A stretch of 64,000 bases of DNA, taken from assembly GCA_964016885.1 (NCBI GenBank), contig OZ024743.1:262260001-262324000 (forward strand), written 5' to 3'. The translations under genes were made by a program, and so were the position numbers. The stretch is from Eledone cirrhosa. Taxonomy: Eukaryota. Shown here in pieces: positions 26,794 to 30,989 of the stretch (the stretch's first letter is position 1; each line of letters opens with the position of its first letter). The notes under the pieces were generated by a model that was not told the origin of the DNA, made no database searches, and saw nothing but the letters and a program-made list of their open reading frames with translations.

Positions 26794-29559
26794 TCAGGTG
26801 TAGTTTTGGCGTATTTCGGGAAGCATGAGTGTCTTAAAGGATGCAGTGTCTCGGCAGCTAACAATTGACGCAGGCAGTTTGTTCCATGTTTCAGCAACTC
26901 TGAGCGTGAAAAAATGTCTGCGAAAGTCATGGGAGCTGTGCTGTTTTCTTATCTTGTAGGCATGTCCACGTGTGTTAGACACATGGAGATCAAAGAGGCG
27001 CTCAGGGTTGCAGTTGGCGAGATGGTTAAAAACTTTGTGGGTATTCACCAAGTCCACTGCCAGACGTCGGAGCTTCAATGAATCCATGCCCAGGGAAGCA
27101 AGGCGTTCAGAGTATGGTAGGTGTCTGATGGAGGGTATGCGCTTGGTTGCACGTCTCTGAACAGTTTCCAGGAGGTCAATGTTCCGAGCAAGATAGGGGT
27201 TCCAGACTGATGATGCGAATTCCAAGTGTGGTCGCACCATAGCTGTATACAGTTTTAAATAGATGGCTGGAGAGCGGCTAACAAAGGTCTTGCTGAGTGA
27301 TGCCAAGACACCCTCGGCCTTCTTGACAATCTTAGAGACATGCTTTGTCCAATGCAAATCGTTGCTGACAGTAATGCCTAGGTCACGTTCACAAGAGGAC
27401 TTTTTGATGTCAGTGTTGTGGAGGGAGTATGTGGACGCTGGATTTTTCCTTCCAAAATGCATGGTGGTACACTTGTCCACAGCCAGCTTCAGTTGCCAGT
27501 CTGTGATCCATTGCTGCATTGTGTCCAGGTCTGATTGTAGGAAAGAGTTGTAAATTTCAGGATCAGTCCTTTTGATTTCAAGGTACAGCTTGATGTCATC
27601 TGCATATTTTAGTACCGTGGCATTCTGTAAGTTGGCATCTATGTCATTAATATATGCCACAAACAAAAGAGGACCAAGAACAGATCCCTGTGGTACACCA
27701 GATGACATCTCATATGGTGAAGAATGCTGTCCTAGAACCGTGACTACTTCCCTTCGGCTGAGAATGAAGGATTTCAGCCAGTCGAAAAGATCATCCCTCA
27801 CACCCATTGCAGAGAGTTTTGCCATAAGTCTTTTGTGTGGCACAGAATTAAAAGCCTTAGCAAAGTCAAGGTAAACAACATCCACCCATGAGCCGCTGTC
27901 AGTGATCCGGGTGATGTCCTCAAGGAACTCGATAAGCTGATCACAGCAGCTGGAGTTAGGGATAAATCCAAACTGTGATGGCCGGATGAGGCTGTGAGAG
28001 CTCCAGAAGTTCCAAAGTGTTTCTCTGACACAGGATTCCATCAGTTTGGCCATACAGCTAGTAAGACTGACTGGACGATAGTTGACAGGTGACATGCGGT
28101 TGCCCTTTTTGAACAGGGGAATGACACTGGCAGTTTTCCACTGCTCCGGAGTAGCACCATTGCTGAGACAGTATTGAAAGAAAAAAGAAAGCTGGCGCAA
28201 AAGGAAATCCCCGCCACGTTTGAGAAGCAGGTATGTCACACCATCAAGACCAGGGGAGGCATAGTTGCGCTTATTCTTAAGGTGACGTCGCAACATTGCA
28301 GGTGTAAATTCCATAGTTGTTATGGAATTTGATGTTAGAGATGGTGGAGATGGTACATTCTGGTTTTCAACAGTAAAAATACTTGCATAGCACTCAGCAA
28401 TGAGTTCTGCGCATTCCTTGGGATCGTCAGTGATCTGGCTTGTGTGGGGATTGCGAAGAGGACCAACTGGAGAGTGAGGTCTCTGCTTTGAATGAACATA
28501 TTTCCAGAACACCTTACTGTCAGGATTGGTTGCGATGCACTGTTCAAATTCAAGCACTGCCTTCTTTGTCACTTGCTTGAGATGGTTAGAAGATTTATTC
28601 CGCTTTTTTCTGTTGGCATCTGATCTATGCAGTTTATATTCCCGTTCAGCGTTCCGACGTTCTTTCCTGGCAAGTCGGACTGCTGAAGTTTCCCAGATTG
28701 CACTTTTGGGGTGGTTATTTTTCCGCTTCCGTGGCACTGATGCTGCACACGCTATCCATATTGAGTCCAGGATGCTCTGGAGTATAGAGTTCACATCTCC
28801 AGAGTTATACATCTCATGCCAGTTTGGGCGCTGTAGCTCAGTGCAGTACAAGTTCCAATCCGCCCTCTTCCAATCAAAGCAAGCAGATTGGAGATGGCTC
28901 TGGTTTTTGTTGCTGCCCTCAAGTGCCAGATTGGCAATGATCATAGCATGATCAGAGTCGCCTAGAGGTTCCTCAGTAGTACAACTGATAACCACTTCAG
29001 GAGTAGTGGTGAAGATCAGGTCCAAAGTGTTGTCACCTCTTGTTGGAGAGGTGACTACTTGTGACCAGTTTGAGTCCAGCACTAGTTCAAGGAAATCGTT
29101 TGCACCCTGTGGCCAACGAAAGGTTTCCCAATCGATCTCAGGATGATTGAAGTCACCTGCAATAAACACATAAGTGGCTGTTTTCTTGGCAGCAACTCTG
29201 AGGATATCGCAAAGCTGTGTGTCCTGATGGTAGTTTGGGGGGCGATAAACAACACCAAGCAGAAGTGTTGACATGGTCATACGTATGTCACAGAAAAAAA
29301 CTTCTTCCTGTGATTCGTTCAAATCAACGCAAGGAATTACCGAAAAGTTTGAACGAACGTAGACCATCACACCACCACCACGGCGGTTAATGCGGTCCTT
29401 GCGGAAAAGGTTGTACCCAGTAATGGTGAAAACCCCATCACAGAGTAAGGAATGTGCCCATGTTTCCGTGACTGTGATGAAGTCAGGGTCGATGCTTCTG
29501 ACGTAGGATTCGAACAGATGTATCTTGTTGCATAAACTGCGAGCATTTAAGGACAACAA
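26794..29559 (-). CDS. CR1 ORF2: APE endonuclease + reverse transcriptase (frame open upstream through the ORF1 end; no initiating ATG)
   Basis: 921 aa without stops: LNARSL, TETW, GDFN, SDH (APE); NYRPVSLTS, DFAKAF, GVPQGSVLGP, YADD (RT); TRGH..FF..RVAETWNKLP CR1-type C-terminus. Confidence 0.95.
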   Translation of the reverse strand: MLSLNARSLCNKIHLFESYVRSIDPDFITVTETWAHSLLCDGVFTITGYNLFRKDRINRRGGGVMVYVRSNFSVIPCVDLNESQEEVFFCDIRMTMSTLLLGVVYRPPNYHQDTQLCDILRVAAKKTATYVFIAGDFNHPEIDWETFRWPQGANDFLELVLDSNWSQVVTSPTRGDNTLDLIFTTTPEVVISCTTEEPLGDSDHAMIIANLALEGSNKNQSHLQSACFDWKRADWNLYCTELQRPNWHEMYNSGDVNSILQSILDSIWIACAASVPRKRKNNHPKSAIWETSAVRLARKERRNAEREYKLHRSDANRKKRNKSSNHLKQVTKKAVLEFEQCIATNPDSKVFWKYVHSKQRPHSPVGPLRNPHTSQITDDPKECAELIAECYASIFTVENQNVPSPPSLTSNSITTMEFTPAMLRRHLKNKRNYASPGLDGVTYLLLKRGGDFLLRQLSFFFQYCLSNGATPEQWKTASVIPLFKKGNRMSPVNYRPVSLTSCMAKLMESCVRETLWNFWSSHSLIRPSQFGFIPNSSCCDQLIEFLEDITRITDSGSWVDVVYLDFAKAFNSVPHKRLMAKLSAMGVRDDLFDWLKSFILSRREVVTVLGQHSSPYEMSSGVPQGSVLGPLLFVAYINDIDANLQNATVLKYADDIKLYLEIKRTDPEIYNSFLQSDLDTMQQWITDWQLKLAVDKCTTMHFGRKNPASTYSLHNTDIKKSSCERDLGITVSNDLHWTKHVSKIVKKAEGVLASLSKTFVSRSPAIYLKLYTAMVRPHLEFASSVWNPYLARNIDLLETVQRRATKRIPSIRHLPYSERLASLGMDSLKLRRLAVDLVNTHKVFNHLANCNPERLFDLHVSNTRGHAYKIRKQHSSHDFRRHFFTLRVAETWNKLPASIVSCRDTASFKTLMLPEIRQNYT

Positions 29560-29615
29560 TTTGTACCCTGCTCGCAGTCTATGATGGTGTGTAGAGGGTG
29601 GCAGGTTGTTCTGGT

Positions 29616-30989
29616 TTAGTTTCCCAGAGTTGTAGCAGTTTTTACATTGCCAGTTATTGTGGGTAGATCACACTCAGACCAGCTGGTATCTCTCTTCCAC
29701 GTTTCACCCGCCTTGACAAACCTCCAGATCTGCCCATCATCACGCAGACTGAAATTTTCATCTTGTGCTGAGTTCCGATTCAAGGAGGCTGCAGCACGTA
29801 GTTTTGGACGTACATGGGGTGGTAGGCCTGGGCGTGTTCGGAAGGTAATCCGATTTTCACGCCCAGCTTTAGCAGAGGCCAGATGATATGAGGTTGCCTC
29901 TGCGGGGTCCGAGAAAGACAGCCTGATGAGTCTGGGTTTTGGACCAGGTCGACCAAGGCGGAGGGCACCCTTTGGGGGAACACAGCCTAGGTCTTTGGCC
30001 GAGCTGGCAGCAAATGCCTGAAGATCGGCCTTGTCCTCTGGTACCCCAATGGCAATCACTTCATGGGTAGCAGATTCCGCAGTCTTTTCAGTCTTTCCAG
30101 CAAGAGGTACAGGGAGATTCTTTAGCAAGGCATTCCGATAAGACCCCTCATTGTGGGGTCCTACCCGAATGCTTGCCTCTATTCCTGCAACTTCCCTTCT
30201 CAGAGCAGAAATCATTAGTTGCAGTTCCGCAAAATCTGTACTGGTCGGTTGTTGTTGTTGTTGTTGTTGCTGCTGCTGCTGTCGTTGTTGGTGATGATGT
30301 TCCTCCACGGGAATGGCAGGGGAGGACACAGTCGCAGGTTGTTGCTGTTGTTGTTGTTGTTGGTGATGATGATGTTCCTCCACGGGAATGGCAGGGGAGG
30401 ACACAGTCGCAGGTTGTTGCTGTTGTTGTTGTTGGTGATGATGATGTTCCTCCACGGGAATGGTAGGGGAAGACACAGTCACCAGTTGTTGGTGTCGAGA
30501 TGTACTGGGAGTGGAAGACATGGGTTGTTGTTGTTTCTGATGTTCTCCCACAGGAATAACAGTAGAAGCCAGTGTCATAGGTTTTTGCCGTTGTTCAGTA
30601 ACAGTGGTAGAGGAAGACACAGTCATTGGTTTTTGTTGTTGTTGTTGTTTTTCAATAACATTAATAACATTCGTGGAGGCAGGCACACAGGCCAGACACT
30701 GAAAGGACCAGGATTTTAGCTGGACCATCTCCCATATTCCATCCATCATAGCATTATGGTGTCTCTTTTTTTGGCCTGGGATCCTCCGGAAGCCTGTGGC
30801 GCATTGAAGGCAGACAGAGATGCGACAGGTTCCACATTCGACCCAGCGATTACGGAACGAGTTTTCGGGTTCCGCACAGATATGGCAGATGTGATTTTCT
30901 GGGCAATGTTCTATCTTGGGACATCGGCCGGTTTTGTCACATATTTCATCGATGGATATCACCATGGCAATTTTGTTATTTCTACCCAT
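29616..30989 (-). CDS. CR1 ORF1: PHD-like Cys finger, Q/H-rich repeats, coiled coil, RRM-like region
   Basis: First ATG gives MGRNNK (30989). CHIC..WVECGTCRISVCLQC..WSFQCLAC, tandem PATVSSPAIPVEEHHHHQQQ units, LQLMISALRREV, RLGRPGPKPRLIRLSF. Confidence 0.85.
   Translation of the reverse strand: MGRNNKIAMVISIDEICDKTGRCPKIEHCPENHICHICAEPENSFRNRWVECGTCRISVCLQCATGFRRIPGQKKRHHNAMMDGIWEMVQLKSWSFQCLACVPASTNVINVIEKQQQQQKPMTVSSSTTVTEQRQKPMTLASTVIPVGEHQKQQQPMSSTPSTSRHQQLVTVSSPTIPVEEHHHHQQQQQQQPATVSSPAIPVEEHHHHQQQQQQQQPATVSSPAIPVEEHHHQQRQQQQQQQQQQQPTSTDFAELQLMISALRREVAGIEASIRVGPHNEGSYRNALLKNLPVPLAGKTEKTAESATHEVIAIGVPEDKADLQAFAASSAKDLGCVPPKGALRLGRPGPKPRLIRLSFSDPAEATSYHLASAKAGRENRITFRTRPGLPPHVRPKLRAAASLNRNSAQDENFSLRDDGQIWRFVKAGETWKRDTSWSECDLPTITGNVKTATTLGN

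Follow-up and report, generated by a model that had tools for sequence, protein, structure and literature searches.

A candidate -1 ribosomal frameshift signal at the ORF1/ORF2 junction of a LINE family in the octopus Eledone cirrhosa

The element and its ORF1/ORF2 junction

The window analyzed here, the whole 64,000-nt stretch of Eledone cirrhosa contig OZ024743.1 (positions 262,260,001 to 262,324,000), contains two copies of a long interspersed nuclear element (LINE), after which we named its subfamilies A and B. Our subject is the junction between the two open reading frames (ORFs) of this element, where a slippery heptamer directly precedes the ORF1 stop codon. The element is a retrotransposon lacking long terminal repeats (non-LTR), of the apurinic/apyrimidinic endonuclease (APE) type, as judged by an ORF2 encoding an APE endonuclease followed by a reverse transcriptase (RT; matches above the Pfam cut-off to PF03372, PF14529, and PF00078), an L1-like ORF1 fold (the predicted structure of the C-terminal 213 aa resembles human L1 ORF1p, best E 1.8e-6), dispersed genomic copies that include 5'-truncated ones ending near the ORF1/ORF2 junction, and a short (ATT)n tail at the 3' end. 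Pfam offered no curated family for ORF1, and no protease domain was detected with it. The element is presumably of the CR1 type, a label based on its architecture and on C-terminal motifs; our RT tree included no named CR1 elements. The features of the two copies are as follows.

29616..30989, reverse strand: ORF1 of copy A, 457 aa, with a Cys-rich N-terminus that looks PHD-like by eye, Gln-rich repeats, and a coiled coil-RRM-CTD (C-terminal domain) arrangement
26794..29667, reverse strand: ORF2 frame of copy A, 957 codons from one stop to the next, -1 relative to ORF1, APE endonuclease and RT
29619..29625, reverse strand: slippery heptamer G_GGA_AAC of copy A, in ORF1 phase
29616..29618, reverse strand: ORF1 stop TAA of copy A, immediately 3' of the heptamer
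29599..29631, reverse strand: 33-nt block around the site, with a single difference between subfamilies A and B
29602..29604, reverse strand: first in-frame CUG, with A at -3, a candidate near-cognate start if ORF2 is translated by reinitiation
29575..29577, reverse strand: second in-frame CUG, replaced by AUG in the most frequent variant of related organism G
29365..29367, reverse strand: earliest AUG in the copy A ORF2 frame, within the endonuclease
53495..54705, forward strand: ORF1 of copy B, its frame broken by a frameshift near 53626
54687..57373, forward strand: ORF2 of copy B, -1 relative to ORF1, broken near 56581, with an early stop at 57371
54696..54705, forward strand: heptamer G_GGA_AAC plus TAA of copy B, the heptamer itself at 54696-54702

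This LINE is young and abundant in the genome: an A-type endonuclease pattern, the design of which left out subfamily B, gave 411 genomic matches, and the exact B-type junction gave 266. Copies A and B are 84% identical across 3.6 kb. Both had been described as full length, which holds for copy B in extent, yet both of its ORFs are frameshifted; an intact B-type copy was found elsewhere in the genome (locus L246). The only ORF1 relatives with organism names are predicted proteins of Octopus vulgaris.

At the junction, both copies read CTG GGA AAC TAA in the ORF1 frame, and the position and phase of heptamer and stop are as the original prediction had given them. Its description of ORF2 as a -1 frame that stays open from the heptamer, with a linker of equal length in both copies, was likewise confirmed: the frame is open from a point 49 nt ahead of the ORF1 stop in A and 16 nt ahead of it in B, and this stop lies 71 nt from the NARS motif in A and B alike. 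No AUG occurs before residue 87 of the ORF2 frame, and none in that frame within -60 to +90 of the ORF1 stop in either copy. The first ORF2-frame AUG after the site (29367, in GGGVMVY) comes 3' of the APE motifs LNARS and TETW, again as had been claimed. Near-cognate CUG and UUG codons are present upstream of it, and two in-frame CUGs sit 14 and 41 nt 3' of the heptamer, each with an A at -3, in both A and B.

We propose that ORF2 is probably made by programmed -1 ribosomal frameshifting at this heptamer, as part of a 1398-aa ORF1-ORF2 fusion. The majority of ribosomes would decode Gly-Asn and terminate, producing the 457-aa ORF1 protein, while a minority would slip one base back, from GGA AAC to GGG AAA, and continue through the linker, endonuclease, and RT for 941 aa beyond the shift. 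The predicted fusion would carry the junction ...TATTLGN-LNQNNLPP..., and its predicted tryptic junction peptide is TATTLGNLNQNNLPPSTHHHR/K. The recoding signature itself is real and deeply conserved, and it supports the idea of gag-pol-like frameshifting in this LINE family. The shift event and how often it happens, the fused product, and a possible stimulator are our inferences. Among the criteria for a -1 frameshift site, we found the in-phase heptamer, an ORF2 that is open in the -1 frame and has no AUG ahead of the endonuclease motifs, and conservation, and failed to find an adjacent stimulator.

Conservation of the heptamer and of its protein trace

That both copies share the heptamer despite their divergence had been taken as an argument for function. 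The heptamer is indeed shared, but the match by itself is weak evidence, because at a background identity of 84% seven shared bases are expected with a probability of about 0.3 (0.84^7), and we dropped the two-copy identity as proof. We therefore turn to the wider family, whose distant members supply the main evidence.

Searching the ORF1 C-terminal domain against 50%-identity cluster representatives returned 54 proteins, nine of which were left unscored as the last conserved motif was not found (eight end or diverge earlier, and P0175, which has a variant motif, terminates in PGN). The scored homologs span 27-63% identity, and all 45 of their tails carry GN (36), KN (5), or only EN (4), a set of dipeptides picked after the tails had been seen. 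GN alone was found in 36 of the 45 tails, compared to a mean of 5.8 and a maximum of 17 in 10,000 within-tail shuffles, and GN or KN in 41, compared to a mean of 8.7 and a maximum of 20. The dipeptide lies 1-33 residues C-terminal to the last conserved motif, and 0-20 unrelated residues separate it from the protein end. The residue preceding GN is S, Q, A, E, P, V, or T, such that a G-ending codon is possible in 37/37 cases; as 20% of tail residues have no G-ending codon, this gives p of about 2e-4 (relatedness ignored). The commonest form is Ser-Gly-Asn (20/37). The stop immediately follows GN in just 6/37, and thus stop-adjacency is not a family rule. GN was also present in six of seven extra ORF1 homologs. 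At the protein level, these tail dipeptides are the trace expected of a conserved G_GGA_AAC or A_AAA_AAC; the EN tails would need G_GAA_AAC, and G_GA is listed among the tolerated slippery-site exceptions in a passage of PMC5009743.

The DNA of distant relatives was approached through a dual-frame test, in which 70 ORF1 and 120 ORF2 proteins (8400 pairs) were examined for DNA that could encode both in an overlap. Five pairs overlap in the -1 frame by 10-14 aa, while every other pair, as well as the +1 control, reaches at most 8. The overlaps of P0186 with P0085 and of P0137 with P0086 force the DNA TCG GGA AAC CAG stop, i.e., G_GGA_AAC, and that of P0132 with P0005 forces CAA AAA AAY stop, i.e., A_AAA_AAY in -1 phase. 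P0186 and P0085 share their source and the length of the longest contig (4110), as do P0132 and P0005 (4299), and each of these two pairs is therefore probably located on one contig. The pairs with forced heptamers represent two lineages, whose ORF2s share 30% and 42% identity with that of the window, and P0085 and P0086 fall on a far branch of the midpoint-rooted RT tree (114 sequences). With ORF2s on such distant branches, the slippery cassette either travels with this ORF1 type or is old. On balance, we lean slightly toward a widespread family of LINE ORF1s carrying a retrovirus-type -1 cassette at the 3' end, placed before ORF2s of distant RT branches and giving a Gag-Pol-like fusion without the classic adjacent pseudoknot.

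Within the genome itself, we sampled 226 loci representing 180 distinct contexts, which were top matches rather than a random sample and were all of A or B type. The heptamer and stop are retained in 85/87 A-type and 81/87 B-type loci covering the site, counts whose weight is limited since dead copies reveal descent, not selection. More telling is the low divergence between A and B around the site, where 1/33 positions differ compared to 24/75 in the flanks (Fisher p = 5e-4, with the window picked post hoc). In contigs of two related organisms (J and K), 29626 and 29615 are changed, and the ten positions 29625-29616 that form the heptamer and stop are unchanged. Six protein searches for more divergent subfamilies in the same genome returned A or B types or nothing among the top candidates, which were the only ones scored, and other subfamilies may exist. 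The original prediction had named loss of the heptamer or of the -1 phase from the family as the finding that should count against it; with retention in 85/87 A-type loci, 81/87 B-type loci, and 45/45 tails, it was not refuted.

Searches of other sequence collections added little. No DNA of distant ORF1s was found among the viral contigs searched, the prokaryote genomes gave one weak 22-residue ORF1 match that was not used, and none of the 80 loci from a metagenome scan with ORF2 as the query had this ORF1 motif.

Downstream structure and rival routes to ORF2

Two hairpins at equivalent places 3' of the site enter the comparison below.

29531..29583, reverse strand: hairpin of copy A with a 15-bp stem (z -4.5), beginning 35 nt past the heptamer
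54738..54790, forward strand: weaker counterpart in copy B (z about 0), only partly kept, with the middle of the stem broken

Several observations weigh against frameshifting or its spread across the family. No stem-loop or pseudoknot common to A and B was found at the usual spacing of 5-9 nt by simple folding, the pseudoknot score of copy B was equaled by 251/300 shuffles, and no long-range pairing, the 3' end included, rose above shuffled queries. The original prediction had reported no shared stimulatory structure, which is right for the 5-9 nt spacing and needs amending for the partly shared hairpin from +35 nt. This hairpin contains one A/B compensatory pair, which is mismatched in 14/87 B-type loci, and together with the in-frame CUGs it fits reinitiation. 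In organism G, the second CUG (window 29577) is an AUG in the most frequent variant (depth 153,804/179,833, 29 contigs, contig depth not being a copy number), such that a sister lineage may have changed to AUG initiation; no heptamer change is listed for this organism. The closest ORF2 relative, P0001 (61% identical), has 59 upstream residues without GK or KK plus L, P, H, Q, or R, which may reflect a short contig missing its 5' end; this signature occurs in 12/67 ORF2 N-termini, a count of little use because most of these N-termini go with other ORF1 types. The ORF1 homolog fragment P0191 has no dipeptide, the dipeptide set was chosen post hoc, and the heptamers of distant lineages were deduced from proteins in two lineages only, not read as DNA. 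Finally, 12 CR1-like loci combine other ORF1 types with a -1 overlap, and of these only L121 has a stop-adjacent heptamer. If frameshifting does occur, the site may work at a low rate on the heptamer alone, or via a stimulator missed by simple folding.

The serious rival, which we nevertheless regard as unlikely, is termination-reinitiation as in SART1 and L1, where ribosomes would stop at the UAA and restart at the near-cognate CUG 14 or 41 nt downstream with the help of the +35 hairpin, producing a free ORF2 protein with a complete endonuclease. The two CUGs, in phase with ORF2 and each having an A at -3, are kept in 166 and 170 of 174 A/B loci, the first lies within the 33-nt block conserved between A and B, and the AUG of organism G replaces the second. 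There is also precedent, in that SART1 ORF2 initiation is stated to depend on downstream RNA structure (passages of PMC3708506 and PMC10275272), and L1 to withstand loss of its ORF2 AUG (a passage of PMC1965478). However, reinitiation leaves unexplained why Gly-Asn or Lys-Asn, with codons that form the heptamer, recurs in relatives with 27-43% identity. The CUG positions are not family-wide, since in P0086 neither Leu nor Met occurs from the site up to the endonuclease core; the hairpin offers the single compensatory pair described above, with z about 0 in B; and no AUG overlaps or adjoins the ORF1 stop, in contrast to the SART1-type stop-start. Frameshifting and reinitiation could both operate.

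A quite improbable explanation is that Gly-Asn is kept as a C-terminal protein motif of ORF1p and that codon choice produces the heptamer incidentally. The evidence from the 45 tails is protein sequence, with Ser-Gly-Asn as the commonest form (20/37), as this explanation would have it. Yet the interchange of Gly, Lys, and Glu suits heptamer-ending codons better than chemistry, the dipeptide has no fixed position within the unaligned tail, none of the seven amino acids lacking a G-ending codon precedes GN, and the deduced DNA forms the heptamer both times (chance of about 1/36 and 1/4 under equal codon use). In the structure model, the last 11 ORF1 residues of copy A have a predicted local distance difference test score (pLDDT) below 50. 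Very improbable, in our view, is the production of ORF2 from rare genomic copies fused in frame, or by polymerase slippage in a nearby A run. In some natural copies, small indels immediately 5' of the heptamer do bring ORF1 and ORF2 into a single frame (L243, L287, and L288), two of these copies having an open single frame of 1381 codons (L243 at C4 367.25 Mb and L287 at C3 19.22 Mb). Nonetheless, B-type junctions comprise 266 normal ones, 5 with an extra A (fused), and 7 with one A fewer, both changes being equally rare, and thus the fused form has not spread, and fused copies as masters were ruled out on these counts. Moreover, such an A run is absent from subfamily A, in which the 957-codon ORF2 is open in many copies, and G_GGA_AAC is not a long homopolymer.

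Relation to known systems and other observations

Gag-pol-type -1 frameshifting at G_GGA_AAC is used by retroviruses and PEG10. The octopus LINE has the same heptamer in the same phase, with an RNA-binding structural protein upstream and a polymerase downstream. It differs in being non-LTR; folding at 5-9 nt yielded neither a stem-loop nor a pseudoknot, and Pfam showed no protease domain, so that the fusion would remain in one piece unless cleaved by an enzyme of the host. That G_GGA_AAC is a canonical -1 heptamer, as the original prediction had it, agrees with a passage of PMC5009743 that ranks it, along with A_AAA_AAC, among the most shift-prone heptamers.

Like SART1 and human L1, the element would have a bicistronic LINE RNA with an L1-like ORF1 fold and a hairpin after the stop that is strong in A and weak in B; in those elements, ORF2 depends on ORF1 translation (stated in part of PMC2881922). 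Unlike them, the octopus LINE lacks a UAAUG or AUG, and its ORFs overlap in -1 on a conserved heptamer. That well-studied LINEs use reinitiation, as was claimed earlier, is true of SART1 and L1 and calls for one addition, in that ORF2 of Dictyostelium TRE5-A and TRE3-A is stated to need a -1 frameshift (legend of a figure in the review PMC5911963). These are likewise two-ORF APE-RT elements; they differ in host, ORF1, and ORF2 C-terminus, and the passage in PMC5911963 gives neither a slippery site nor an assay, whereas the heptamer of the octopus LINE is conserved over a family of ORF1s. In architecture, the element resembles the CR1/L2 type IIC with a PHD and transposase-22 ORF1 (Metcalfe and Casane, PMC4120745), with which it shares the Cys-rich N-terminus, the L1-like coiled coil-RRM-CTD, the APE-RT ORF2, and the short (ATT)n tail; the words "frameshift" and "overlap" are absent from PMC4120745. 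For Paramecium LINEs, +1 frameshifting, reinitiation, or readthrough has been suggested (a passage of PMC5405496), and the portions of PMC1925062 and PMC5006619 covered contain nothing on LINE ORF2 frameshifting. Within the literature covered, partly as excerpts, no conserved -1 heptamer is reported for a CR1-like LINE, and frameshifting may have been proposed in older descriptions of elements.

The way in which LINEs translate their second gene is an open question, both worked-out cases (SART1 and L1) using reinitiation. If the proposed frameshift is true, some LINEs would follow gag-pol logic, with the enzyme arriving fused to ORF1p, and ORF2 annotations that start at the first AUG would truncate the endonuclease. 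If it is true of the whole family, many LINEs would set their ORF1p:ORF2p ratio via ribosomal slippage and have the endonuclease-RT tethered into the ORF1p trimer. The site in this young, high-copy family offers a precise test, with one heptamer, two CUGs, one hairpin, and one junction peptide to consider.

We also note some features of the element and its surroundings. In the 3' untranslated region of copy A (window 26515-26770, reverse strand), an imperfect direct repeat of ~125 nt precedes the (ATT)n tail. About 25 A-type copies on the same strand, ~32-135 kb apart, lie in C28 at 124.7-126.35 Mb (also in C178 and C1185), and the 957-codon ORF2 is open in nearly all of them; this cluster is probably one insertion within a large tandem repeat. 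Several broken copies of another LINE, with a Cys-rich insert in the RT region, are located at 2225-3079, 11518-12465, 36514-39565, and 40921-42395 of the window, and we take them to be RTE-like, judging by motifs.

Among CR1-like loci with other ORF1 types, ORF2 is in -1 phase in 12 of the 22 having an upstream ORF (L121, L123-L125, L127-L131, L140, L147, and L161), with overlaps often of 150-400 nt. In-phase heptamers at these loci occupy 9/800 places inside the overlaps compared to 6/2948 outside (p = 0.0013), but at unaligned places coinciding with protein motifs. The AUG variant of organism G lies 12 nt before YKLL. In L226, a 5'-truncated copy, a 16-nt unit containing the heptamer is tandemly repeated at the 5' junction. 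Lastly, three loci (L160, L148, and L175) have 2A-like NPGP motifs at the ORF2 N-terminus, upstream of the endonuclease, and such motifs have been described for LINEs (a passage of PMC3708506).

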